Below are positions 32,612 through 59,662 of a DNA stretch of 64,000 nt, in pieces; positions within the stretch are counted from its first letter, which is position 1, and each line of letters opens with the position of its first letter. Source of the DNA: Candidatus Omnitrophota bacterium (GTDB lineage Bacteria; Omnitrophota; Gorgyraeia; Zapsychrales; JBAZNR01). The stretch is taken from positions 1,039,497 through 1,103,496 of the forward strand of contig JBAZNR010000001.1 in the NCBI GenBank assembly GCA_041649175.1, written 5' to 3'. Under the pieces are notes generated by a model that saw nothing but the letters and a program-made list of their open reading frames with translations, had not been told where the DNA came from and did no database searches. The position numbers were made by a program, and so were the translations under genes.

Positions 32612-33408
32612 CGGAGCAAGAACTTATTCTAATCGATCTTTTAAAGTGCCGCCGCGTTGATCTGTACGCCAGGGATGTGGATCTTACGCAAAATCAGGAA
32701 GAACAATTATCTAAAATTCAAGATCGTCGGAAGTCAGGCGAGCCTTTGCAGTATATTTTAGGGCGAACAACATTTTTAAATACAGAACTTTTGGTTGATG
32801 CGCGTGTTCTTATCCCTCGTCCTGAAACGGAATTGCTGGTAGAAGCGCTGATAAAGAAATCAAGATCATTTAAGCGAGATTTAAGAATTCTTGATATTGG
32901 GACTGGCAGCGGGAATATCGCCATTGCTTTGGCTAAAAATATTCCAAATGCTTTTTTGACAGCTGTTGACATTTCTTTGGACGCTTTAGATTTGGCAAAA
33001 GTTAATGCGCAGCTTAACGGCGTTAGTGATAAAATAAATTTTACTCAAAGTGATCTATTTTCAGGATTAGAGCAAGAGGCGATCAGCGAGAAATTTGATA
33101 TCATTGTTTCCAATCCGCCGTATATCAAAAAAGAAGATATTGGCCGATTACCGGCAGATGTGCGAAGAGAACCGGTGATAGCCTTAGACGGTGGAGAAGA
33201 CGGGCTTGAGTTTTATAGAAGAATTATCGCCCACGCGCAGGGTTTTTTAAATCCCGGCGGGTTCTTAGCGCTGGAGATGGGAGATGGGCAAAAATTTTTT
33301 CTGGAAAAAATTTTTGCCCAGCATAAAAATTTTCAAGTAACAGAATTCATTAAAGATTATGTCAATACGGATCGTATCATCATCGCGGAGCTAAAAATTT
33401 ATGGATAA
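32608..33408 (+). CDS. prmC: Release factor glutamine N5-methyltransferase
   Basis: NPPY motif and a SAM-binding DIGTGSG motif. The ATGA overlap with prfA is typical for prmC. Confidence 0.9.
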
Positions 33409-34663
33409 ACTTATCATTGAGGGCGGCAGGGCTTTAAAAGGCGAAGTGAATATCAGCGGGGCAAAAAATTCAGCCTTACCGATCATGGCGGCAACACTTT
33501 TGACCGATGACACGTGCATTATTCGCAATGTGCCAAGGTTGCGTGATACCTTAACCATGGCGCGATTACTACGGTCTTTAGGAAAGAATGTGGATATTAC
33601 TGCCGATAAAGTGACCATTTCTTCCAAAGGAGAACATCAGTACATCGCCGATTACAAGTTAGTTTCTACCATGCGTGGGTCATTTTGTGTTTTAGGGCCG
33701 ATTCTCGCAAAACTTAAGAAAGCCAAAGTATCTTTACCCGGAGGTTGCATTATCGGTGTTCGCCCGGTCGATCTTCACATCAAAGGATTAGAGGCTTTAG
33801 GCGCGAAAATCACCGTTGAAAATGGCTATGTGACCGCCAAGGCGAATCAGTTAAAGGGAACAAGCATTTATTTGGGTGGTTCGTTCGGTTCATCAGTTTT
33901 GGCGACGGCCAATGTCATGATGGCGGCAACATTAGGCAAAGGAACAACGGTTATTGAGTCGGCGGCTTGTGAGCCTGAAGTTGAAGATCTGGCTAACTTC
34001 CTTGCATCCATGGGCGCCAAAATAAAAGGACAAGGCTCTCCTCAAATTTCGATCACAGGTGTTAAGAAACTTCATGGCACGGATTATAAGATTATTCCCG
34101 ACCGCATTGAAACCGGAACATTTGTTTTATTTGCTGCCGCAACGAGAAGCAATATTGTGATCAAAAACGGTTGTTACAATCATATTTTAGCTTTAGTTGA
34201 TCGGCTTCGCATTGCCGGAATTGATGTCATTGAAGAAAATAATTCCATTAAGATAAAATATCGTAAAGATATAAAGCCCGTCAGCCTTTCAACGTATCCT
34301 CATCCTGGTTTTCCAACGGATCTGCAGGCGCAATTTATGGCGCTGATGGCGATGATCCCCGGAGTAAGTGTTATTACCGATAAAGTTTATCCGGATCGCT
34401 TCATGCATATTGCCGAGCTTATTCGTATGGGAGCGAATATCCGCCGTGAGGGTAGCAGTGCTATTATTCAGGGAGTTTCATGTTTGCGCGGTGCTCCAGT
34501 TATGGCTTCTGACTTAAGGGCTTCCGCGGCTTTAGTTTTAGCCGGTTTGGCGGCCGAGGGAAAAACAGAGATCGGCCGCATCTATCATCTTGACCGCGGC
34601 TATGAATTGATCGATGAGAAATTAACAAAACTTGGCGCCAAGGTGCGCCGGGAAAAAGAATAA
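33401..34663 (+). CDS. murA: UDP-N-acetylglucosamine 1-carboxyvinyltransferase
   Basis: 420 aa of EPSP-synthase fold with the catalytic Cys region (SGAKNSALP..., LPGGCIIG). Confidence 0.93.
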   Translation: MDKLIIEGGRALKGEVNISGAKNSALPIMAATLLTDDTCIIRNVPRLRDTLTMARLLRSLGKNVDITADKVTISSKGEHQYIADYKLVSTMRGSFCVLGPILAKLKKAKVSLPGGCIIGVRPVDLHIKGLEALGAKITVENGYVTAKANQLKGTSIYLGGSFGSSVLATANVMMAATLGKGTTVIESAACEPEVEDLANFLASMGAKIKGQGSPQISITGVKKLHGTDYKIIPDRIETGTFVLFAAATRSNIVIKNGCYNHILALVDRLRIAGIDVIEENNSIKIKYRKDIKPVSLSTYPHPGFPTDLQAQFMALMAMIPGVSVITDKVYPDRFMHIAELIRMGANIRREGSSAIIQGVSCLRGAPVMASDLRASAALVLAGLAAEGKTEIGRIYHLDRGYELIDEKLTKLGAKVRREKE

Positions 34664-34675
34664 AAAGAGCAGACA

Positions 34676-35239
34676 ATGATCCTTGTTATTGATAATTACG
34701 ATTCGTTTACATATAACCTTGTTCAATATTTGGGTGAATTGGGCGCTGATCTAAAAGTCTATCGCAACGATAAAATTTCTGTTGAACAAATAAAGAAACT
34801 TAAACCCGACCGCATTGTTATTTCTCCCGGGCCAGGCCGCCCCGAGGATGCCGGAATTTCTGTGGCTGTCATCAAAGAATTATCCGGAAAAATCCCTATC
34901 TTGGGTGTTTGCTTGGGGCATCAGGCTATCGGTTTCGCCTATGGCGGAAAAATCATTCAAGCCAAGAAATTGATGCACGGAAAAACCTCGCAGATCTATC
35001 ATGATAAAAAAAGAATTTTCTCAAAAATAGATAATCCTTTTGAAGCAACGCGTTATCATTCCTTAGTGATCGAGAAAAAAAGTTTGCCGTCGTGCCTGAC
35101 TGTGACCGCTTGGACAAAGGACGAAGAAATTATGGGAGTTGTTCATAAAGATTTTCCGCTGTGGGGCGTTCAATTCCATCCTGAATCAATCTTAACCAAG
35201 TCAGGATTGGGTTTACTCAAAAATTTTCTTACCCTTTGA
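34676..35239 (+). CDS. trpG: Anthranilate synthase component II / aminodeoxychorismate synthase glutamine amidotransferase
   Basis: Class I GATase of 187 aa with a GVCLGHQ catalytic Cys and a terminal HPE motif. Confidence 0.9.
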
Positions 35240-36252
35240 TGAATAACTACATTGATAAGCTTCAGAAAAAACAGAACCTTACATCCTTAGAGATGGAAGA
35301 GGTGATGCGCTCTATCATGTCGGGAAAGGCTTCTCAAAATGATATCGCATTATTTCTAATGGCGCTGCGTGATAAAGGCGCGACGGTTGATGAGATCACC
35401 GGAGCCGCCAAGATCATGCGGCAGTTTGTGGTCCCTGTCCAAAGTAAGCACGCTGTCATTTTGGATACTTGTGGCACCGGTGGAGACCGCCTGCGAACAT
35501 TCAATATATCGACGATCGTTGCTTTCGTTGTGGCGGCCGCGGGGGTAGCGGTGGCGAAACACGGCAATCGCTCGGTTTCCAGCAAATGCGGAAGCGCCGA
35601 TCTTCTTGAAGCCTTAGGTGTTAATCTTGACGCGGAATCAAAAAACTTAAGCACTTGTTTAGATAAGATCGGTATTGTATTTTTATTCGCTCAGAAGCTT
35701 CATCCCGCTATGAAACACGCCGCACCGGCACGAAAACAATTAGGCGTTGAAACGATCTTCAATGTCTTAGGCCCTTTGACAAATCCGGCTCAAGCGACGC
35801 ATCAGATGATGGGCGTTTATCAAAATGACCTGACGGAGCCGATGGCGCAAGTTCTCAAGAATTTGGGATTGAAGAAGGCATTGGTGGTCCACGGCGCTGA
35901 TGGATTAGATGAAGTCACCACAACACGTGAAACATTTGTCAGTGAATTTAACGGAAAAGATATTAGTTCGTATACGATCGACCCCAAAGAATGCGGAATA
36001 GCGCTTGCCTCCCTGGAAAACTTAAGAGGCGGCGATGCGTCGACCAATTCTCGGATCGCTTTAGAGATTTTGAAAGGAAAAAAAAGCGCTAAACGCGATA
36101 TTGTTGTTTTTAACGCGGCTTGCGCGCTTTATATCGCGGAAAAAGTCAAGGCGATCCCCGATGGAATAAAAATAGCCGAGGATATGATCGATACAGGGAA
36201 GGCTTTAGACAAGTTGGAGGCTTTAAAGGAATTTACGCATTATGCCCAATGA
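35236..36252 (+). CDS. trpD: Anthranilate phosphoribosyltransferase
   Basis: DTCGTGGD and [15 protein letters not shown] motifs. Length is 338 aa. Confidence 0.92.
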
Positions 36253-37030
36253 CTTTTTAAAACAGATCATTGAATATAAACAAAGCCTTCTAAAAGAAAA
36301 GAAGGCATTCTATGAGACTCTTAAAAATAAGATCAGGAAGGAAAAGCTATCCCGTTATTGTATTTTTAAGAAAGCTATTTCTGCGCCCGGGCAAGTTAAT
36401 TTGATCGCCGAAATAAAGAAAGCCTCGCCTTCCAAGGGAATTATCCGCCCTAATTTTGATTGCTTGCAACTGGCAAAAGTTTATGTCAAAAATGGCGCGG
36501 CGGCCTTATCGATCTTAACGGAAGATAAATTTTTCTTAGGTAAAATTCCGTATTTGCGCCAAGTAAGCGAGAATTTAAGCGTTCCGGTCTTAACGAAAGA
36601 TTTCATCATTGATGAAGTGCAAATCTATGAAGCGTTTTATTTCGGAACAAGCGCTATTCTTTTGATCGTTGCCATCCTGGACGACAAACAACTAAGAAAC
36701 TTGATGAATGTGGCGGCCGATCTGGATTTAGATTGTTTAGTCGAAATTCACAATGAAAAAGAACTAAACCGTGCTTTAAAAGCTAAAGCGGAAATTATCG
36801 GGGTCAACAACCGAAACTTGCGCACCTTTGAAGTGGATTTAAAGGTCAGCGAGAAACTTATTCCCCAAATCCCCAAAGACAAGGTTATTGTGGCGGAAAG
36901 CGGGATCAAGGCTCATCAAGAAATAAAGGTTTTAGAAAAACTTGGGGCTCATGCGGTTTTGATCGGAGAAACATTCTTACGCGAAGCGGATGTAGCAGCT
37001 AAAGTGAAGGAAGTGATGCATGGCGAATAA
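36242..37030 (+). CDS. trpC: Indole-3-glycerol phosphate synthase
   Basis: IAEIKKASPSKG and an NNRNL motif. Length is 262 aa. Confidence 0.92.
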   Translation: MPNDFLKQIIEYKQSLLKEKKAFYETLKNKIRKEKLSRYCIFKKAISAPGQVNLIAEIKKASPSKGIIRPNFDCLQLAKVYVKNGAAALSILTEDKFFLGKIPYLRQVSENLSVPVLTKDFIIDEVQIYEAFYFGTSAILLIVAILDDKQLRNLMNVAADLDLDCLVEIHNEKELNRALKAKAEIIGVNNRNLRTFEVDLKVSEKLIPQIPKDKVIVAESGIKAHQEIKVLEKLGAHAVLIGETFLREADVAAKVKEVMHGE

Positions 37031-37646
37031 AGTTAAAGTTAAGATTTGCGGCATAACTAATGAGTCGGATGCTCTTTTTGCGTGTGAACTTGGCGCTTGG
37101 GCGCTGGGGTTTGTTTTTCACAAGAAAAGTCCGCGCTATATTTCTCCGTCGAAGGCAAAAAGAATTATTGAGGCGCTTCCTCCGTTCGTCACGCCAGTCG
37201 GCGTTTTTGCCAACTTAAGAGAAGGCGCGGTAAGAGATATCGCGCGGTTTTGTTCGTTACGAACTTTGCAATTCCACGGGAATGAAACGCCGCAGTATTG
37301 CGGGCGCTTTAGGGATCATTCCGTCATAAAAGCGTTTCGTGTCGGGAATGATTTCGATATTAGTAGCTTAAGCCAATTTAAGACATCAGGTTATTTGTTC
37401 GACACTTTCCAAGAAGATGTTCAAGGCGGAACGGGAAAGACATTTAATTGGGACATTATCAAGGATAAAAAATTTACGCGGCCGGTTATTTTGTCGGGTG
37501 GCTTAAACCCCCAGAATGTTGCGCAAGCCATTGGAGAGATCAAGCCTTACGCGGTTGACGTTAGTAGCGGCGTTGAGCAAACGCCGGGTAAGAAAAGCGG
37601 AAAATTGTTGATAGAATTCTTTCAAATTGTTAATTCTCTTAATTAA
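37020..37646 (+). CDS. trpF: Phosphoribosylanthranilate isomerase
   Basis: VKICGIT N-terminus and the QFHG motif. Length is 208 aa. Confidence 0.9.
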   Translation: MANKVKVKICGITNESDALFACELGAWALGFVFHKKSPRYISPSKAKRIIEALPPFVTPVGVFANLREGAVRDIARFCSLRTLQFHGNETPQYCGRFRDHSVIKAFRVGNDFDISSLSQFKTSGYLFDTFQEDVQGGTGKTFNWDIIKDKKFTRPVILSGGLNPQNVAQAIGEIKPYAVDVSSGVEQTPGKKSGKLLIEFFQIVNSLN

Positions 37647-37658
37647 GGAAAAGAAGCT

Positions 37659-38330
37659 ATGAGCAAAGTGATCTTTGATGTGGAAACGGTGGGGCAGGAT
37701 TTTGAAACCTTGGATGATACGTCAAAAGAGTATTTCTTAAAATTCGCCGAAACCGACGAAAAAAAAGAAGAAGCCAAGAATTCCTTAAGCTTTTATCCTT
37801 TGACCGCGCAAATTGTTACCATTGCCATGCTGGACGCCGAAACCCAAAAAGGATTTGTCTATTTTCAGAACAAGACAGGTAAGCCGGAGAAGTTTGTTGA
37901 GGGCGAAACACTTTATTTGGCGGGTACCGAACAGGATATTCTTAATAACTTCTGGGTCCAAATAAGAAAATATACGCATTTTATAACGTTCAACGGAAGG
38001 GTTTTTGATTGTCCGTTCGTGATGTTGCGTTCGGCCATAAACGGTATTCGTGCCGGTAAAAATCTTATGCCGTATCGTTATAGCCACACAGAGCATATTG
38101 ACTTGAGCGATCAGCTGACATTTTATGATGCGATGCGGCGTAAATTCAGCCTACATATGTGGTGCCAGGCTTTTGGCGTTAAAAGCCCAAAAGAAGAGGG
38201 AATTACCGGGCTTCAGGTCAAAGACCTCTTTAAAGAAGGGCGTTATCACGATATCGCGCGCTATTGTTTTCGTGATGTTCAGGCAACAAAAGAGCTTTAT
38301 CAGTATTGGGAAAAAAACCTTAGGTTTTAG
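37659..38330 (+). CDS. Predicted DEDDy 3'-5' exonuclease, RNase H-like fold (PolB-exonuclease-domain-like)
   Basis: IFDVETVG (Exo I), FNGRVFDCPFV (Exo II-like) and YCFRDVQATKELY (YxxxD Exo III). 223 aa. It is embedded between trpF and trpB. Confidence 0.65.
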   Translation: MSKVIFDVETVGQDFETLDDTSKEYFLKFAETDEKKEEAKNSLSFYPLTAQIVTIAMLDAETQKGFVYFQNKTGKPEKFVEGETLYLAGTEQDILNNFWVQIRKYTHFITFNGRVFDCPFVMLRSAINGIRAGKNLMPYRYSHTEHIDLSDQLTFYDAMRRKFSLHMWCQAFGVKSPKEEGITGLQVKDLFKEGRYHDIARYCFRDVQATKELYQYWEKNLRF

Positions 38331-38385
38331 TTTTATTTTTCAGCCTCGTCGATAGAAAGCCCTTTCTTGAGCGCGGGTAGCCACC

Positions 38386-38414
38386 TTGTCGAGTTTAGAA
38401 AAGTATGCTATATT
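38386..38414 (+). promoter_or_regulatory. Promoter of the candidate small RNA
   Basis: TTGTCG at 38386-38391, a 17-nt spacer, then TATATT at 38409-38414. The predicted +1 (~38421) coincides with the first base of the RNA closing helix. Confidence 0.55.
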
Positions 38415-38420
38415 CTTATT

Positions 38421-38616
38421 AAGCCGATAAAGGTAAACCCGTTGAAAGACGGGGACGCAAAGCCTACAGACCTAATGTGTCGGATGCTCAAAGAGGCTCG
38501 CGGTGGTGCTGGCGGGCGACAAAAGCCGGGTACGGCTTATGGCTGACGACAAGATGGTGGCTGGGTTGCCGAAGTGACGCGGGAGCGATATCCCGATCTT
38601 TGTCGGCTTCTTTTTT
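38421..38616 (+). ncRNA. Candidate structured small RNA of ~195 nt, identity unassigned (possibly 6S-like or another trans-acting sRNA)
   Basis: GC-rich island (~58% GC) in an AT-rich intergenic region. A 14-bp closing helix joins 38421-38434 with 38596-38609 and ends in UUUUUU. Internal hairpins are recognisable: 38438-38453 with a GAAA tetraloop, 38523-38538 with a GGUA loop, and 38580-38595. The RNA has its own promoter and is followed by a second terminator hairpin. Confidence 0.55.
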
Positions 38617-38627
38617 AAACACCTTTT

Positions 38628-38656
38628 AAAACCCTCTTCAATGAGGGTTTTTTATT
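38628..38656 (+). terminator. Rho-independent terminator downstream of the candidate sRNA
   Basis: 9-bp stem AAAACCCTC / GAGGGTTTT with a TTCAAT loop, followed by a T-run. Confidence 0.75.
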
Positions 38657-38731
38657 TTTATGCCATCCTTAAGCTAATCTTTCTTCTGCATTCTTTTTGT
38701 TGTGAAAAATCATTTTCTAGGCAATAGGTTA

Positions 38732-38740
38732 TGGTATAAT
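38732..38740 (+). promoter_or_regulatory. Extended -10 promoter (TGGTATAAT) for the Zn-ribbon/M20 operon
   Basis: TGnTATAAT at 38732-38740. The first in-frame ATG lies at 38749, only ~8 nt downstream. This suggests a leaderless or near-leaderless mRNA. Confidence 0.5.
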
Positions 38741-38748
38741 TGTGCCCA

Positions 38749-39051
38749 ATGAATATCAAATTTTTAAGGGTTTTTAAACGCGTTGATGTCGACGATGTCA
38801 AGGGGCATCTATTGATCTGCGGAGACCTTTCGGCCAGCTGTTCGAAATGCGCGGCTGTAGGGATAAAACTTGATAGCAGCAAGTGCCCTGAATGCCAAAC
38901 AGATTTTCGTTATGTTACTTTCCGAAATATAAAAGAAAATATGCCTAAAGTTCAAAGGTTAAGCGAACCTCCATTGGCTTTGTCGGTCATTGATTTTGAT
39001 GATTATAAGAAAATTACCGGAGCGCAAAAAGCTGAGGATTTCTTTAGATGA
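38749..39051 (+). CDS. Small Cys4 zinc-ribbon protein of unknown function
   Basis: ~100 aa with CSKC...CPEC. Its stop overlaps the start of the M20 peptidase gene (ATGA). The six-frame ORF begins at TTG 38740, inside the -10 element, so ATG 38749 is preferred. Confidence 0.55.
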   Translation: MNIKFLRVFKRVDVDDVKGHLLICGDLSASCSKCAAVGIKLDSSKCPECQTDFRYVTFRNIKENMPKVQRLSEPPLALSVIDFDDYKKITGAQKAEDFFR

Positions 39052-40190
39052 TCAATAAAAAAAGATTAACGGCATTAACTCAAAAGCTGATCGGGATCAA
39101 TTCTGAAAATCCTCCGGGACGAGAATGGGACATAGCCGAATTTATCCGTAAAGATATGCTGTCTTTAGGGCTGGATGTTAAGACATATACATTCCAAAAG
39201 AAGCGGCCGAATATTGTGGCGACTTTGCGGGGCAAATTGCCCCGCAAAGTCGCCAGCTCTCAAGCTATCTTGCTTTCGCCGCATATTGATACGGTTCCGG
39301 CGGGCAAGGGTTGGCGATTTGGTCCGTTTTCCGGGAAAATCCACCAAGGGAAAATTTATGGGCGTGGGGCTAGCGATGATAAGGGTAATTTAGCTTGTTG
39401 CATGGAAGTTTTAAGAAGCTTGATGGAAGACGGTGTTTCTTTCCAGAAAGATATTATCATGGCCGCAACGGCGGATGAGGAAACGGGGAGCCATTTTGGC
39501 ATTGTGCCGCTTTTGGCTAAAAAGATCCTGAAGCCAAAAGCGGCACTCATCATGGATTCCGACGAATTTCATTCTATTATCGCGCAAAAAGGGCTTATCC
39601 ACTGCCGGGTTCAGATTTTTGGGAAAAAAGCTCATGGCGCTTATAACTGGCGCGGTATTAATGCCATTGAACAAGCCGGCCGCATAATCAATCAAATAAA
39701 ACAACATAAGTTTTCTTTTAAAAAACATACGCTTTTGCACGCGCCGACGGTCAATGTTGGGACGATCAAAGGCGGAGACAAAGTCAATATGGTCGCGGAT
39801 TTCTGCGAATTTTCTTTAGATTTTCGTTATTTACCCGGCACAGATCCAAAATCTGTTTTAAATATTCTTAAGAAAACCATTCGATCCGAGGCAAAGAAAT
39901 TCAAGATCATCATCGACGATCTTCAATATCCTTATGAGATTGATACTGATCATTCCCTGGTTAAAACTTTTTCTGCTACCTGTAAGAAAATGGGATTTAA
40001 ATCGCAACTAACTGGCAGTGAAGGCGCAACAGTCATTTCGTTCTTTAAGCGTTTTGGTATTCCGGCTATTGCAACAGGTTTTGCGGCGGAAGGCACAGCG
40101 CATATCACGGATGAATATGCGGTGGTGAACGATCTGTATCATGGCTCGCAAGTCTTAGAACAGTTTTTAAAGGACTATGACCAAATATGA
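39048..40190 (+). CDS. M20-family metallopeptidase (ArgE/DapE-like deacylase)
   Basis: HIDTVPAG and GASDDKGNLA metal-binding motifs. Length is 380 aa. Confidence 0.8.
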   Translation: MINKKRLTALTQKLIGINSENPPGREWDIAEFIRKDMLSLGLDVKTYTFQKKRPNIVATLRGKLPRKVASSQAILLSPHIDTVPAGKGWRFGPFSGKIHQGKIYGRGASDDKGNLACCMEVLRSLMEDGVSFQKDIIMAATADEETGSHFGIVPLLAKKILKPKAALIMDSDEFHSIIAQKGLIHCRVQIFGKKAHGAYNWRGINAIEQAGRIINQIKQHKFSFKKHTLLHAPTVNVGTIKGGDKVNMVADFCEFSLDFRYLPGTDPKSVLNILKKTIRSEAKKFKIIIDDLQYPYEIDTDHSLVKTFSATCKKMGFKSQLTGSEGATVISFFKRFGIPAIATGFAAEGTAHITDEYAVVNDLYHGSQVLEQFLKDYDQI

Positions 40191-40660
40191 GTCCGGCGAA
40201 ACATGTGATTGCTTCGGGTGTTACCAGTGTTGTTTTTATGGTTTTGTTTAAATCCTGGGCGGGTGCCGTGGCGTGTTTTTTAAGCGGTATTTTGATCGAC
40301 GTGGATCATCTTTGGGATTTTTATTTAGGAACTAAGAAAATCAGCTTTAGTGTTCAGGAGCTGGATGATTTTTGTTCCCGCGATGAAAAAGGAGGAAAGC
40401 TTTATCTTTTTTTTCACTCCTATGAGTTTTTAGCGGTATTATGGGGCATTGTATTTTATTCTCAATTTTCTCCCGTTTTAACCGGTATTGTTCTTGGAAT
40501 GAGCGTTCATTTGTTGCTTGATCAAATAACTAACGCAGTTTATCCTTGGGCATATTTCTTTTTTTATCGCGCAAGGTTTGGCTTTCCGCAGGAAGTTTTC
40601 TTTAAGGAACGGTTTTTGAAAAGATTTGTTTGCGCAAACGAGACCTCATATGAGAAATAG
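40187..40660 (+). CDS. DUF457/YdjM-like membrane-bound metal-dependent hydrolase-family protein
   Basis: 157 aa with 3-4 TM segments and conserved His/Asp positions (IDVDHLWD, HLLLDQ). The ATGA overlap with the M20 gene indicates coupling. Confidence 0.55.
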   Translation: MSPAKHVIASGVTSVVFMVLFKSWAGAVACFLSGILIDVDHLWDFYLGTKKISFSVQELDDFCSRDEKGGKLYLFFHSYEFLAVLWGIVFYSQFSPVLTGIVLGMSVHLLLDQITNAVYPWAYFFFYRARFGFPQEVFFKERFLKRFVCANETSYEK

Positions 40661-41411
40661 TAAAATATTTTTAACGGCTCTATTCTTTCTGCTTGGATCG
40701 ATGACTTCTTGTTCATCTGAATCCGATCATTTCTCGCAAAATCAAAAAAACAAAGAAGCATTCAACCAAGGCCAACAAACATTTTCTCCTTTTCTTCCTG
40801 GTGAAACGATCAAGTATTCCATAAAAAATCTTGGCATTAATGCCGGAGAAGCGACGATTACTTTTGAGGGGATCAAGAAAATTAACGGCAAAGATTTTCT
40901 CCTGATTGTTTTTAAGGCCAATGCCATTAATTTCTTTGACGAGGAAAAGATATATTCCGATCCGGAAACTTTTTATCCTTTGATTGTTGAGCGTGATTTG
41001 AATATTTTCGGGAAGAAAGAAAAGATCACTGAGGTCTATGATCAGAAAAATGGTGTTATCAGAATTATCAAGAAAGCGGGCGGAAAAACGACGGAACAAA
41101 CGATCAGCAAACAAGGTGCTATTGATAACATCTATTGTTTTATTTATCGTTACCGGCAATCAGGAAAATTTCAAGTTGGCGAATCATTTTCTGTCAAGCT
41201 TCCCACAAAGGATGTTATTATAAACCTAGTGAAGGAAACGAAGATTAAAGCAGCCGGGAAAGAGTACAGTAGCTATTATCTCCAAACAAATCCGGCGCAA
41301 TATAAGGTGTGGATCGATACAAGTGAGAAAAAAGTTCCTTTGCGTATCAATGGGGCAGTTGGGGTCAGTTCAACAGCGATGATCATGAACGCATATCAAG
41401 ACGGAAAATAA
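40650..41411 (+). CDS. DUF3108-like lipoprotein
   Basis: Lipobox LLGSMTSC after a signal peptide. The mature region is beta-rich with the [19 protein letters not shown] pattern typical of DUF3108. The six-frame ORF begins at 40626. I used ATG 40650. Confidence 0.55.
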
Positions 41412-41412
41412 A

Positions 41413-42591
41413 ATGAGTTTACCAGATAAGCAAGGACATTTCGGAGAGTTTGGCGGGAAATTTGTTCCTGAGACGCTGATGTCGGCTTTAGCGGACCTAG
41501 AAAAAGTTTTTTACGCTCTAAAAAAGAACAAAAAATTCAAAGAAGAGTTTAATTTCTATCTTCGTGAGTATGCCGGACGGCCGACTAATCTTTACTTGGC
41601 CAAGCGGCTTAGTCGTCATTTAAAACATCTCAAGGTTTATCTCAAGCGCGAAGATCTTCTTCATACTGGCGCGCATAAGATCAATAATACTTTAGGTCAA
41701 ATTCTGATCGCCAGAAATATGGGGAAAACCCGTATTATTGCTGAGACGGGTGCTGGTCAGCATGGTGTGGCGACCGCGACCGCTGCGGCTTTGTTCGGCT
41801 TGAAATGTGAAATCTATATGGGCGAGGAAGACATCGAACGTCAGGCGCTTAATGTTTTTAGAATGAAACTTTTGGGCGCGAAAGTTATTCCGGTCACTAG
41901 CGGCTCTAAGACGCTTAAAGACGCGATGAATGAAGCTATTCGCGATTGGGTGACGAATGTGGCCAATACTTTTTATATTATCGGTTCCGTTGCCGGCCCT
42001 CATCCGTATCCGGTGATGGTGCGTGATTTTCAATCCGTGATCGGACGGGAAGCCCGAAAGCAAATTCTAGCCAAAGAACATCGTTTGCCGGATTGTATCG
42101 TCGCTTGTGTTGGCGGCGGTAGCAATGCTATGGGGCTTTTTCATTCTTTCTTTAACGATAAAAGCGTAAAGATGATCGGCGTAGAAGCGGCTGGATTAGG
42201 GATGAATACGCGCATGCATGCGATCTCTCTGGGGAAAGGGAAAACGGGGGTTTTGCATGGAAGTAAAAGCAGTCTTTTGCAAGAAAACGATGGCCAGGTC
42301 AAAATCGCCCACTCCATTGCGGCCGGATTAGATTATCCCGGAGTCGGGCCGGAACACGCGTATTACAAGAAAATTGGCCGGGCAAATTATGTTTCCGTGA
42401 CAGACCAAGAAGCTATTAAGGGTTTAAAACTTCTTTCACAAACGGAAGGGATCATTCCTGCCCTGGAATCGGCACATGCAATCAGCTATTTAGAAAAATT
42501 AGCAAGGAAAGTTAAGGGAAGCGCCACCGTTATTGTTTGTTTGTCAGGGCGCGGTGATAAAGATGTCAGTTCGATCAAAGATTTGATCTAG
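41413..42591 (+). CDS. trpB: Tryptophan synthase beta chain
   Basis: [12 protein letters not shown]-lysine motif and a GGGSNA motif. Length is 392 aa. Confidence 0.94.
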
Positions 42592-42604: not shown

Positions 42605-43396
42605 ATGAATCGCATTGATAAAAAATTTAAAGAGCTTAAGATTGGACGAAAGAAAGCTTTCGTTGCATTTATCACGGCTGGCGATCCGGATCTGAAAACG
42701 ACCGAAAAATTAGTTTTGGAATTTGAGAAATCCGGCGTTGACTTGATCGAATTAGGCGTGCCTTTCTCTGATCCATTAGCCGACGGCCCGACTATTCAAG
42801 CCGCTTCTTTTAGAGCGCTTAAAAAGAAAGTTACTTTAAAGAAGATCTTTGAATTGGTGCGTTGTATCCGTCGGAAATCCCAAATCCCTATTTGTTTGAT
42901 GGGTTACTATAATCCCGTGTTTCATTTTGGCGAAGAGAAGTTTATTAAAGAAGCAAGTCGTTTTGGCGTTGATGGTGTGATCATTCCTGACCTGCCTCCG
43001 GAAGAAGCCGGCCGGTTAATTTCTGCGGCGCAAAAATACAATGTGGCAACTATTTTCTTTTTGTCGCCGACAACCACAAAAAAACGGGCTGAAAAAGTTA
43101 TTCGCGCTTCCAGCGGTTTTATTTACTATGTTTCCTTGGCAGGGGTGACGGGCACGCGCAAGGCTTTGCCGAAAACAATTATCAAGAATGTTCGCGCGGC
43201 AAAGCAGTTAACTAACAAGCCGATCTGTGTTGGCTTTGGTGTTTCCAATCCTTCTCAAGTGAAGTTGATCGGCACCATTGCCGATGGTGTTATTGTCGGA
43301 AGCGCGATCGTTAAAGAGATTGAGCGAAATGCAGGAAAAAAAGATTTAGTGAAAAATGTTTCGCGTTTTGTGAAGAAGTTAGCCGTATCTCTGTAA
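42605..43396 (+). CDS. trpA: Tryptophan synthase alpha chain
   Basis: ELGVPFSDPLADGPTIQ motif. Length is 263 aa. Confidence 0.93.
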   Translation: MNRIDKKFKELKIGRKKAFVAFITAGDPDLKTTEKLVLEFEKSGVDLIELGVPFSDPLADGPTIQAASFRALKKKVTLKKIFELVRCIRRKSQIPICLMGYYNPVFHFGEEKFIKEASRFGVDGVIIPDLPPEEAGRLISAAQKYNVATIFFLSPTTTKKRAEKVIRASSGFIYYVSLAGVTGTRKALPKTIIKNVRAAKQLTNKPICVGFGVSNPSQVKLIGTIADGVIVGSAIVKEIERNAGKKDLVKNVSRFVKKLAVSL

Positions 43397-43408
43397 AATG
43401 AATTTAAA

Positions 43409-43438
43409 GGCGGTTGAGGCGCATGCGCCTCAACCGCC
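43409..43438 (+). terminator. Perfect 30-nt palindrome (14-bp stem) 13 nt after the trpA stop; probable terminator or attenuating hairpin
   Basis: GGCGGTTGAGGCGC-AT-GCGCCTCAACCGCC followed by TTT. It lies between trpA and the M16 peptidase gene. Confidence 0.6.
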
Positions 43439-43460
43439 TTTGACTAAACGAAAGGTTTTT

Positions 43461-44738
43461 ATGTATCAAAAGACAGATTTGCCTAATGGGCTTCGTGTTG
43501 TCAGTTATGAAATGAAAGACCGAGATAGTATTTCTATAGGAATTTGGATCAATGCCGGCGGCCGCTATGAAGAAGATAAGGTAAAAGGCGCCGCGCATTT
43601 TTTAGAGCATATCCTCTTTAAAGGAACTAAGAATTATTCCTGCGAAGCGATCAAAGAGCTTATTGAAGGTGTGGGCGGAATGCTCAATGCCTTTACCTCC
43701 GAAGAAAATACCTGTTATTTTGCCAAAGTTCCGGCCAAGCATTTAAACCAGACTTTTGATGTTCTGGCGGATATGGTTTTATCGCCGCTGATCACTAAAG
43801 AGGATGTTGATAAAGAGCGCGGTGTTATATTAGAAGAAATAAAGATGTACCATGATCTTCCGCAGCATTTCGTTTTAGAGCTTTTAGACGAACTGGTGTG
43901 GCCTGACCACCCTCTGGGAAAGAATCTCGCTGGAAGCTTTGAAACCGTTGGGCAGATGAGCGAAAAAGATCTGCAGGGATTTCATCGAGGCCAGTATATT
44001 TCCAAAAATATTGTCGTGGCGGCCTGCGGAAAGTTCAAGCATAAAGATTTATTAAAACTTGTTACGAGGAAATTTCGTAATCAGGCAAAAAAACAAACCG
44101 AAAGTTTCCTTAAATTCGAGAACAGGCAAAATAGTCCGCAAGTTAAATTATTTCGTAAAGACATTGAGCAAATGCATTTAGCTTTAGGAATGCATGGGTT
44201 GCCTTACGATCATAAGGATAAATATATCTTAAATCTGCTCCATGTGATTTTGGGGGCTAATATGTCCAGCCGCCTTTTTGACGAAGTTCGGGAAAAGCGA
44301 GGGCTTGCCTATGCTATCGGCAGTTCCGTTAAATCTCTCCAGGATACGGGCCTTTTTATGGTTCGTGCCGGCGTTGATAATAAAAAGATCGTTGAGGCGG
44401 TTAAAGTTATTCTAGAAGAGTTATCCAAGATCAAAAAAGAGAACGTCACGAAAGATGAATTTACGCGCGCCAAAGATTATTATTTAGGACAAATTCTTTT
44501 AGGATTGGAAGATACACTAGAACATATGCTTTGGTTAGGGGAGTCGGTGACAGCTCTTAATAAAACGCGTACTTTAAAAGATATTCTTAAAGAAGTAAAG
44601 AAGATCGAAATATCCGATATCCGGCGGGTTGCCGGTCAGATCTTAAACGAAAATCATTTCAACCTTTCCGTGGTCGGACCATTGGCTGAATCCCAGGAAA
44701 AAGACCTGCGGCGATTAGTGGGTGTTTCTGGTAGTTAA
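43461..44738 (+). CDS. M16-family zinc peptidase (insulinase/pitrilysin-like)
   Basis: Inverted zinc-binding motif HFLEHILFKG (HxxEH). A start at ATG 43461 (MYQK) is preferred over 43398, because the palindrome would otherwise fall inside the coding sequence. Confidence 0.8.
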   Translation: MYQKTDLPNGLRVVSYEMKDRDSISIGIWINAGGRYEEDKVKGAAHFLEHILFKGTKNYSCEAIKELIEGVGGMLNAFTSEENTCYFAKVPAKHLNQTFDVLADMVLSPLITKEDVDKERGVILEEIKMYHDLPQHFVLELLDELVWPDHPLGKNLAGSFETVGQMSEKDLQGFHRGQYISKNIVVAACGKFKHKDLLKLVTRKFRNQAKKQTESFLKFENRQNSPQVKLFRKDIEQMHLALGMHGLPYDHKDKYILNLLHVILGANMSSRLFDEVREKRGLAYAIGSSVKSLQDTGLFMVRAGVDNKKIVEAVKVILEELSKIKKENVTKDEFTRAKDYYLGQILLGLEDTLEHMLWLGESVTALNKTRTLKDILKEVKKIEISDIRRVAGQILNENHFNLSVVGPLAESQEKDLRRLVGVSGS

Positions 44739-58312: not shown

Positions 58313-59662
58313 ATGAAAATACCTAAGAATATCGATAGCCTTATTTTTAATGACATTAACGTCGGTGTTTACCGCAATACGCCCGGCACGCATGGAAAAT
58401 TTATCCGCGTTAATGATGCGCTAGTTCGCATGTTCGGCTACAGCAATCAAAAGGAATTCTTAAAAAAGGTTCGCCCGTCCGATGTTTATTTTTATTCCGG
58501 CGATCGCAAGAAATTTAGCGAACTACTTGCCAAAAAAGGTTTTGTCCGAAGAAAAGAGCTTGTCTTAAAACGTCGAGACGGAACATTGGCGTATGTGCAA
58601 ATTACGGCAACAGCGGTGAAAGACAAAAGAGGGAAAGTCCGTTGGTTTGATGGGATCATTGAGGATGTAACGAAGTTTCGCCGGGAACAGGAGCGGTTTC
58701 GCCATATTTTTGAAAATTCACCCGTTGCCATCTGGGAAGAAGATTTATCGGCTGTTCTTCAGCTTATCAGGCGCTTGCAGAAACAGGGGACAAAAGACCT
58801 GCGAAAATATTTCTTGAGTCATCCTGCGATCGTTGCTCATGCTTTTCGGAATATTAAAATTTTAGATATCAATAAGGCTGCCTTGCAACTTTATGGAGCG
58901 AAGAATAAAAAAGAATTAGTTAAAAATTTTGGAAAAACATTTGCCGCCGGCGCTTTAGAGATATTAACGGATGAATTTCTTACCCTGGCCAAAGGTGAAA
59001 AGAATTTTTCCACAGAGTTAAAAAGTAGAACCATTGATGGCAAGATGCGCGATGTGCTTTTGCGCGTCTCAGTTCCTGATGGTTACGAAAGAAGCCTTTC
59101 CCGTGTTATTGTTACCTTGGAAGATATTACAGAACGTAAACAGCTTGAGCGGCATTTAAAAAAAGTTGCTCAGCAAGACGGTTTGACGAAATTATTCAAC
59201 AGTCGCGCCATATCCAAGCGGCTGGATGAAGAGCTTATTCGAGCCAAGCGCTATAATCTTAATCTTTCCTGCCTGATGCTGGATGTTGATTATTTTAAAG
59301 TGATCAATGATAAATTTGGACATCAAAAAGGCGATCAGATCTTAAAGCGTGTTGCGACCTTGATCAAAACGAGCTTGCGCCGCTCGGATATTGTCGGCCG
59401 TTATGGAGGCGATGAGTTTCTGGCGATCTTGACCCAAACGAAACCTGAAAATGCCAAGATCGCCGCCGAGCGTATCCGCCAATTGGTTACCGCGCAAAGG
59501 TTTCCTTCATATAAAAATATTCCAACCAAGATTACGGTCAGCATCGGTGTCAGCGGTTATCCTCATAAGGATGTTAAGGATTTTCGGAATTTGATCTCAA
59601 ATGCTGATAAAGCGCTTTATCTTGCAAAAGGTTCCGGCCGAGATTGCGTTATTTTGTCATAA
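58313..59662 (+). CDS. PAS-PAS-GGDEF diguanylate cyclase with an intact GGDEF active site and RxxD I-site
   Basis: C-terminal motif ...RRSDIVGRYGGDEFLAIL... The N-terminal ~270 aa are PAS-like repeats. Confidence 0.85.
   Translation: MKIPKNIDSLIFNDINVGVYRNTPGTHGKFIRVNDALVRMFGYSNQKEFLKKVRPSDVYFYSGDRKKFSELLAKKGFVRRKELVLKRRDGTLAYVQITATAVKDKRGKVRWFDGIIEDVTKFRREQERFRHIFENSPVAIWEEDLSAVLQLIRRLQKQGTKDLRKYFLSHPAIVAHAFRNIKILDINKAALQLYGAKNKKELVKNFGKTFAAGALEILTDEFLTLAKGEKNFSTELKSRTIDGKMRDVLLRVSVPDGYERSLSRVIVTLEDITERKQLERHLKKVAQQDGLTKLFNSRAISKRLDEELIRAKRYNLNLSCLMLDVDYFKVINDKFGHQKGDQILKRVATLIKTSLRRSDIVGRYGGDEFLAILTQTKPENAKIAAERIRQLVTAQRFPSYKNIPTKITVSIGVSGYPHKDVKDFRNLISNADKALYLAKGSGRDCVILS

Follow-up and report, generated by a model that had tools for sequence, protein, structure and literature searches.

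In a 64-kb window from a Candidatus Omnitrophota genome (the whole stretch of DNA analyzed here, 64,000 nucleotides (nt) of contig JBAZNR010000001.1, numbered from its first letter), the tryptophan biosynthesis genes trpGDCF are separated from the tryptophan synthase genes trpB and trpA by 3.75 kb of densely packed genes. The initial annotation had read this DNA as an insert that split a once-contiguous trp cluster. Comparison with related genomes points elsewhere: the region is probably an ancestral Omnitrophota gene order made up of three separate transcription units, not a single inserted block. In the first unit, trpGDCF and a PolB-like exonuclease gene would be the distal genes of a polA…murA string and would lack a tryptophan-specific leader. 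The second unit would be a class I riboswitch for cyclic diguanosine monophosphate (c-di-GMP-I) with its own promoter. In the third, an extended −10 promoter is predicted to launch a leaderless mRNA encoding a zinc-ribbon protein (ZnR), an M20-family deacylase, a YdjM-like membrane protein and a DUF3108 lipoprotein, which would run through a 1-nt spacer into trpB–trpA and probably continue into an M16 peptidase gene. Tryptophan synthase would then come from the distal end of an operon that mixes envelope and hydrolase genes.

Gene identities were assigned from a listing of open reading frames (ORFs) together with Pfam and NCBIfam profile searches. The block that runs into trpBA reads as follows:

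38749–39051, plus strand: ZnR, a 100-amino-acid (aa) zinc-ribbon protein (CxxC...CxxC), first gene of the operon
39048–40190, plus strand: M20, a deacylase of the ArgE/DapE family (TIGR01910, 243 bits against a cutoff of 217.6)
40187–40660, plus strand: 157-aa multi-pass membrane protein, weakly YdjM/DUF457-like (sub-threshold match to PF04307)
40650–41411, plus strand: DUF3108 lipoprotein (PF11306, 54.2 bits against a cutoff of 26)
41413–42591, plus strand: trpB (TIGR00263, 632 bits), separated by 1 nt from the DUF3108 stop
42605–43396, plus strand: trpA (PF00290, 309 bits)
43398–44738 as listed, plus strand: M16 (insulinase-type) peptidase (PF00675 and PF05193)

The gene calls agree with the earlier description of a four-gene block whose stops and starts overlap and which leads directly into trpB–trpA; at the first junction, the ZnR stop and the M20 start share an ATGA. 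The genes named between trpF and trpB likewise stood, apart from the label DUF457, which corresponds to a sub-threshold YdjM match, and a candidate small RNA (sRNA), which proved to be the c-di-GMP-I riboswitch. An identical database protein placed the ZnR start at ATG 38749 and not at TTG 38740, and a homology search placed that of DUF3108 at ATG 40650 rather than at a TTG. Both proteins have identical counterparts in a Candidatus Omnitrophota metagenome-assembled genome.

A DUF3108 alignment was searched against genomes, one for each species, and recovered 65 loci, all of them from Omnitrophota; the window proteins were placed on these loci by tblastn. The order ZnR–M20–(YdjM-like)–DUF3108–trpB–trpA–M16 was conserved across these 65 species, and the block travels with trpBA. 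ZnR and M20 lay upstream of DUF3108 in 52 of 54 loci, trpB lay downstream of DUF3108 in 55 of the 59 with enough sequence, and trpA and M16 were found in all 43 loci whose downstream sequence was long enough. The four loci outside the 55 comprise one in which the trpB copy is partly masked (L037), two in which the sequence ends (L008 and L039), and L063, which truly lacks trpBA and is the sole clear uncoupling of the block from these genes; there, ZnR–M20–DUF3108 is followed by a PD40 protein, a 177-aa ORF and M16 (L063:1351–6500). Two loci without M20 (and ZnR), L010 and L031, keep DUF3108–trpBA, and the 157-aa membrane protein, detected in just 15 of 54 loci, is not an obligatory part of the block. 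The murA–trpGDCF–(exonuclease) side, seen as trpF or the exonuclease gene, was present further upstream in 21 of 33 loci, showing that the flanks vary and the block stays intact. Identities to the window proteins were low (40–58% for DUF3108, 32–63% for ZnR and 53–67% for M20); with the order kept, this indicates deep conservation and not recent common descent. Not one of the 65 loci has trpF directly beside trpB, which, together with the conserved block, argues for an ancestral arrangement in the sampled part of the phylum and against an insertion.

The junction between DUF3108 and trpB is variable in length, with a gap of ≤30 nt in 23 loci, 31–160 nt in 15, 161–700 nt in eight and >700 nt in nine. 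Unrelated genes fill this slot in at least 17 species and include a 177-aa ORF, a PD40 propeller, M48 peptidases and a 1385-aa secreted protein. The 177-aa ORF (MGQFKDL...LREY..., no Pfam family) is conserved and sits right in front of trpB in at least 12 species (L029:9717–10250, with equivalents in L013, L015, L022, L024, L025, L028, L041, L044, L048, L050 and L063) and is absent from the window.

Upstream of the block, the genes of the first unit are arranged as follows:

33401–34663, plus strand: murA (PF00275, 353 bits), end of the housekeeping string that runs into trpG
34676–35239, plus strand: trpG (Pfam GATase; TIGR00566, trpG_papA), after a 12-nt spacer from the murA stop
35236–36252, plus strand: trpD (Pfam Glycos_transf_3)
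36242–37030, plus strand: trpC (Pfam IGPS)
37020–37646, plus strand: trpF (Pfam PRAI)
37659–38330, plus strand: PolB-like 3′–5′ exonuclease of the DEDDy type (PF10108, 72.9 bits), 12 nt past trpF

The string polA–glgA–coaE–rho–rpmE–prfA–prmC–murA is co-directional on the plus strand and is followed by trpG. The genes from trpG to trpF (34676–37646) overlap or abut, and the largest gap between polA (25429) and the exonuclease gene (38330) is 41 nt. The 12-nt murA–trpG spacer pointed out in the initial annotation can be read directly in the sequence, and the tight junction without a leader recurs in relatives: the gap is ≤20 nt in 10 of 16, and no known leader RNA was found. The exonuclease gene follows trpF in 16 relatives. 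Across the window, 32 ORFs reach at least 300 aa, every one of them on the plus strand. A weak A/U-rich hairpin (AAAACC-UUA-GGUUUU) with a T-run overlaps the exonuclease stop codon at ~38314–38345 and may end transcription of the long operon before it; with fewer than three G–C pairs, it was missed by the terminator scan.

The start of the third unit is marked by a conserved promoter motif:

38732–38740, plus strand: extended −10 box TGGTATAAT, whose end is 8 nt from the ZnR ATG; Shine–Dalgarno sequence absent

A −10 box at this distance from the start codon and the missing Shine–Dalgarno sequence together predict a leaderless mRNA. In 34 of 56 loci, the motif TGnTATAAT ends 7–10 nt ahead of the ZnR start codon; 6 more of the 56 have it further upstream, with a Shine–Dalgarno sequence after it. 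Loci without the riboswitch also carry it before ZnR, directly after the terminator of the upstream gene, and in L010, which has neither ZnR nor M20, the same motif stands ahead of the gene for the 157-aa protein. Within the window, its only intergenic matches were the ZnR box and the riboswitch promoter, and internal genes such as the exonuclease gene have ordinary GGAGG sites. The comparative evidence for a promoter here is strong, and it most likely gives a leaderless mRNA that begins at the ZnR ATG. No conserved promoter motif was found before trpB, where the motif occurs in 5 of 57 loci, before trpG (0 of 16 relatives) or before the exonuclease gene. This makes trpBA the likely distal part of the ZnR operon and trpGDCF that of the housekeeping string; trpBA is thus most likely co-transcribed as the tail of the ZnR operon, and the 1-nt spacer in the source genome holds no terminator between DUF3108 and trpB.

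Two promoter-like and two terminator-like elements lie in the 409-nt gap between the exonuclease gene and ZnR. Besides the ZnR box, they belong to the riboswitch unit:

38386–38414, plus strand: riboswitch promoter (TTGTCG, 17 nt, extended −10 TGCTATATT)
38422–38573, plus strand: c-di-GMP-I (GEMM-I) aptamer (RF01051, 59.4 bits against a gathering score of 35, E = 4 × 10⁻⁹)
38596–38609, plus strand: switching sequence S1′ (AUCUUUGUCGGCUU), complementary to the RNA 5′ end S1 (38421–38434)
38596–38616, plus strand: terminator T1, formed by the S1:S1′ helix and then the U-run UUCUUUUUU
38628–38660, plus strand: second intrinsic terminator T2, AAAACCCUC-UUCAAU-GAGGGUUUU, then UUAUUUUU

The RF01051 gathering score was also passed by 13 of the 13 copies from relatives that were submitted (36–68 bits). 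A covariance model of our own, built from nine riboswitch copies, detected the complete element in 28 of the 65 loci plus one partial match; copies are single per locus and always on the same strand as the trp genes. In an alignment of 30 sequences, 97.1% of cells were paired and 16 of 26 pairs were compensatory, a result equaled by none of 500 shuffles and set against ≤46.5% paired in slid controls, with a slight lean toward structure because the alignment was fitted to the model. The window copy contains the motifs AAAG-GU-AAACC, GACGC-AA-AGCC and GGGUU-GC-CG, and by our own mapping onto Vc2 numbering, the equivalents of G20, A47 and C92 are the canonical c-di-GMP set. G20 and C92 are ligand-contacting nucleotides (PMC6140456). 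All 29 copies have G at the G20 position, which is A in sensors of cyclic GMP-AMP (cGAMP). A cGAMP-sensing or GGC-variant aptamer was ruled out by the binding-site nucleotides and by a sub-threshold score (53 against 59). Judged by its sequence, the aptamer is a clear member of the c-di-GMP-I class.

Like the RF01051 representatives Vibrio cholerae Vc2 and Clostridioides difficile Cd1, this RNA scores far above the threshold, has a covarying P2 hairpin with a GAAA tetraloop and a covarying second hairpin, shares the canonical G20/A47/C92 set, appears to use a terminator-based expression platform, and precedes surface or secreted protein genes in relatives, as is typical of the class. It differs from them in the ~65 extra nt of its second hairpin, in a switching sequence that pairs with the extreme 5′ end and would close the whole RNA, and in a layout of its own promoter and usually two terminators, followed by an independent promoter. 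A subgroup of copies (L006, L007, L012, L015, L016 and L029; e.g., L007:1293–1488) additionally carries a junction hairpin of ~40 nt between P2 and the A47-equivalent junction, and the four of these run through Rfam scored only 37–41 bits. The riboswitch is therefore a known class with an unusual expression platform. We found no description in the literature of c-di-GMP riboswitches in Omnitrophota or of this locus, and nothing relevant on c-di-GMP-I together with tryptophan synthase. A gene for a PAS-GGDEF diguanylate cyclase lies at 58313–59662, ~20 kb from the riboswitch, so the genome encodes a c-di-GMP synthase.

The riboswitch unit would be transcribed from its own promoter, which ends ~7 nt before the conserved RNA 5′ sequence AGCCGAUAAAGG. 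The layout cTTGyy, ~17 nt, TGnTATrnT, ~7 nt, AGCCGAU was present in 29 of 29 copies, with AGCCGAUAAAGG invariant. S1 comprises the 5′ strand of P1 and the junction with the ligand-contacting G, and S1′, which follows a variable hairpin at 38580–38595, has the nearly invariant consensus CUUU(A/G)UCGGC(U/C). In every one of the 29 copies, 10–15 contiguous S1:S1′ pairs are possible; L063 has a 1-nt deletion on both strands that preserves the helix. RNAfold placed the helix in the minimum-free-energy fold of 7 of the 8 species tested. A U-rich tract follows S1′ in 21 of 29 copies, a second hairpin and U-run like T2 occurs in ~20 of 29, and every copy has at least one of the two terminators. According to the mechanism that these features suggest, the 5′ strand of the aptamer (P1 and junction) in ligand-free RNA would be captured by S1′, and transcription would stop at T1 in the U-run that follows; with c-di-GMP bound, the 5′ strand would be held in the binding pocket and T1 suppressed. 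T2 would follow T1 as a second terminator within the unit. The riboswitch is on this basis tentatively predicted to be an ON switch. An antiterminator linking S1′ to T2 was looked for, and no convincing pairing was found.

The distance from the riboswitch unit to ZnR downstream is no more than 450 nt in ~20 of 29 species, and where genes separate the riboswitch from the exonuclease gene (L002, L032, L036, L006 and L012), the riboswitch stays with ZnR. In other relatives, the space between riboswitch and ZnR is occupied by variable cargo:

L059:1146–8339: 2397-aa ORF without Pfam domains
L007:1582–7675: two ORFs of ~1000 aa
L015:4066–7713: beta-helix/LamG/ricin protein
L046: OmpA-family protein
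L063: ABC ATPase
L035: 250-aa secreted protein
L037, L047 and L061: small Cys-rich ORF (...CxxCGACCG...DPCEHL...; CxxCxxCC)

Large-to-giant ORFs (1000 to >2700 aa), mostly without Pfam domains, fill the slot between riboswitch and ZnR in relatives; in L052, L054, L058 and L060, ORFs of >2600 aa lie just before ZnR and extend past the end of the locus (upstream of ~8400). A classical cis layout is present in L035 and L007, where the secreted-protein ORF begins so close behind the terminator that no promoter would fit. The large and giant ORFs of this slot suggest that some giant surface-protein genes of Omnitrophota sit behind a c-di-GMP riboswitch, in keeping with large secreted and surface proteins as typical c-di-GMP targets. 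The Cys-rich ORF of L061 begins 1 nt past a TATAAT box (GTATAAT), too close for a leaderless start at that ATG.

In the source genome, two terminators and a separate promoter stand between the aptamer and ZnR, and the element may either modulate how much transcription passes into the operon or be an autonomous RNA that binds c-di-GMP. Read-through that reaches the ZnR operon is possible but doubtful; intrinsic terminators are rarely complete, and such leakiness would make it feasible. About as tentative is the proposal that the unit is self-contained, either as a c-di-GMP-binding sRNA (trans-acting or a ligand sponge) or as a docking site whose regulation reaches only the variable cargo genes present behind it in some species, with no effect on ZnR…trpBA in the source genome. 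It fits the unit's own promoter and one or two terminators, the absence of any ORF between it and the following promoter (window, L029, L006, L016 and L008), the end-to-end pairing that closes the RNA much as in an sRNA, and the large secreted or surface proteins behind the unit elsewhere (2397 aa in L059, and those of L007, L015, L046 with its OmpA-family protein, and L035). It sits poorly with the close and persistent association with ZnR despite insertions on the exonuclease side, with the possibility of leaky terminators, and with the fact that no trans target is known. The element cannot be a decaying relic: species that carry no cargo genes still conserve its promoter, its aptamer and its switching sequence. 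A far bolder idea is that c-di-GMP acts through the riboswitch on the leaderless operon that ends in trpBA, so that the synthase would be switched together with surface remodeling at host attachment, and that the riboswitch site is an entry point for giant surface-protein genes into c-di-GMP control. We consider this a long shot; if true, tryptophan synthase might serve in indole salvage, as in Chlamydia, in host-associated bacteria that bear giant proteins.

Several points weigh against the arrangement of three units as we describe it. The promoters, starts and terminators, on which transcription starts and ends, trpBA co-transcription and switch polarity depend, are all sequence predictions, and internal promoters of other types may exist. 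More than 700 nt of other genes lie between DUF3108 and trpB in nine species, and the spacer contains hairpins in some (L046, L047 and L055), so co-transcription is not universal among species. T2 folds as an unconditional terminator, and T1 has no U-run in 8 of 29 copies, which keeps the ON polarity tentative. One or two terminators followed by a ZnR promoter are also unlike the build of a classical cis-riboswitch, and the effect of the riboswitch on ZnR…trpBA in the source genome may be nil.

Two other explanations address the gene order itself. The 3.75 kb might be a recent arrival, either a genomic island or what is left of a mobile element, that broke up a once-contiguous trpGDCFBA cluster. 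In its favor, trpF and trpB are adjacent in the canonical operon, and relatives carry variable cargo on both sides of the riboswitch and before trpB. Yet the same block occupies the same place in 52 of 54 species, and trpF touches trpB in none of the 65 loci. The region contains no recombinase, integrase or transposase domains; flanking direct and inverted repeats are only short, imperfect and at chance level, and there is no compositional break (GC content of 0.36–0.45 in the supposed insert and 0.41–0.47 in the flanks). The initial annotation had already regarded the region as not mobile, and we consider an island extremely improbable.

The other explanation holds that M20, DUF3108 and their partners act in one pathway with tryptophan synthase, through acyl-amino-acid deacylation or an indole/serine salvage route feeding TrpBA, and that selection keeps the genes together. 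The initial annotation proposed such an acyl-amino-acid or indole-related route; the conserved linkage that it noticed is real, and the functional part found no support. In its favor, adjacency is kept at low protein identity with a spacer of ≤30 nt in 23 species, DUF3108 and trpB are adjacent even where ZnR and M20 are missing (L010 and L031), and no separate trpB promoter was detected. DUF3108 itself has a lipoprotein-type signal peptide ending in ...LLGSMTSC. Its AlphaFold model, with a predicted local distance difference test score (pLDDT) of 90, is a LolA-like open beta-barrel for which Foldseek returned DUF1849, YmcC-like, LolA/LolB, LprG and VioE folds. VioE, an enzyme for a tryptophan-derived pigment, shares the LolA-like fold, but at TM-scores of only ~0.3. 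The model points to an exported carrier of hydrophobic ligands, and the lipoprotein signal and the LolA/LolB/LprG-like fold would place DUF3108 outside the cytoplasm, away from TrpBA. M20 passed the subfamily model TIGR01910 and fell below the cutoff of all ArgE and DapE equivalog models; its closest solved relatives are Escherichia coli ArgE and DapE. The conventional expectation from its sequence would be a role in arginine or diaminopimelate (DAP) synthesis, and the family is known for arginine and lysine/DAP biosynthesis. M20 and ZnR are moreover dispensable in L010 and L031, trpBA is absent from L063 where the block and M16 remain, and unrelated envelope genes and peptidases occupy the DUF3108–trpB slot in at least 17 species. 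Clearly unrelated genes (rho, prfA, prmC and murA) are also held with trpG in the same region, which makes adjacency here weak evidence of shared function. The neighborhood in which trpBA is embedded has an envelope/peptidase character (M20, M16, M48, S8, PD40, OmpA and giant proteins). A metabolic link between M20/DUF3108 and tryptophan synthase is accordingly unlikely, and the conserved adjacency reflects long mixed operons in a compact single-strand region, not shared biochemistry.

The remaining two members of the block gave few functional clues. The 157-aa protein matched PF04307 (YdjM) below threshold (17.5 bits against a cutoff of 29, E = 0.003) and its resemblance to YdjM is limited to small size, several membrane passes, and His and Asp motifs. 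ZnR matched no Pfam or NCBIfam family. A homology search with ZnR returned only nine proteins, all from Omnitrophota, with invariant C31, C34, C46 and C49 and a DFDD motif, and its structure model (pLDDT 40, from the nine-sequence alignment) was too poor to use. A small zinc-ribbon protein translationally coupled to an ArgE-like M20 enzyme recalls the LysW/LysK carrier systems, in which the acidic EDWGE-type tail of LysW is the substrate attachment site. Unlike LysW, ZnR has no match to the LysW family and ends in ...KAEDFFR with no acidic attachment tail, and no LysX, LysZ, LysY or LysJ genes lie nearby; the idea was rejected.

As the initial annotation noted for the immediate neighborhood, trpE is not beside trpG. 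A six-frame scan of the window gave no match to the TrpE signature motif, Pfam assigned other identities to 10 large ORFs in the rest of the window, and the motif was not found in any of the 65 relatives' loci. A survey of 176 complete Omnitrophota genomes found trpE, G, D, A and B in 174–176 of them (preprint, bioRxiv 10.64898/2026.06.07.730766), so that trpE is most likely encoded elsewhere in the source genome. Rfam returned no T-box, attenuator-type leader or other family besides c-di-GMP-I in the window and in the loci of 15 relatives. The Rfam 'trpB motif' was considered and rejected: it scored 24 bits against 59 (E = 0.38), a chance match on a generic terminator, and belongs to Firmicutes and Fusobacteria.

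The locus thus departs from the canonical trpEGDCFBA operon in lacking seven contiguous genes and any attenuator, T-box or known leader RNA. Split trp operons in which trpE is unlinked and trpBA stands apart are already well known, as are embedded trp genes: Pseudomonas has trpE / trpGDC / trpF / trpBA, the aro supraoperon of Bacillus subtilis embeds trp genes in a larger operon, and Xie, Keyhani, Bonner and Jensen reportedly reviewed split and dispersed trp operons in 2003. The window shares with these an unlinked trpE, trpBA apart from trpGDCF, and long operons of mixed function. It differs in that no TrpI, TRAP sites, T-box or attenuator was detected, in that trpBA would be the tail of an envelope/hydrolase operon with a likely leaderless start, and in the second-messenger riboswitch at the boundary of the two trp halves. 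Overall, the locus is not a new kind of system.

Its main interest lies in a riboswitch fixed beside a slot that holds giant surface-protein genes and in the conserved leaderless promoter. A defined architecture, conserved across the phylum sample, replaces the guessed insert and gives predicted boundaries for its transcription units, and a c-di-GMP-I riboswitch is now recorded in Omnitrophota at a position fixed by synteny. The phylum is known for large and giant surface-protein genes, which in some species lie next to this site, and the site offers a handle on their possible regulation. Comparison of the ZnR promoter across species also makes a clear case that operons in this phylum can start without a leader. 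The locus also counsels caution: in a streamlined, single-strand genome, tight and conserved adjacency is a weak sign of shared biochemistry.

Downstream of trpA, a further inverted repeat was observed:

43406–43441, directly 3′ of the trpA stop: 36-nt palindrome with fully complementary 16-nt arms (AAAGGCGGTTGAGGCGCATGCGCCTCAACCGCCTTT)

It has no U-run on the plus strand, and the M16 ORF as listed (start 43398) reads through it; the palindrome may be an mRNA end or a stability hairpin. The true M16 start is probably ATG 43462, which has AAAGG ahead of it, and an esterase-like protein is encoded after the M16 peptidase. The M20 coding sequence contains two perfect inverted repeats, at 39217–39255 (19-nt arms and a 1-nt loop) and at 39504–39546 (15-nt arms and a 13-nt loop).

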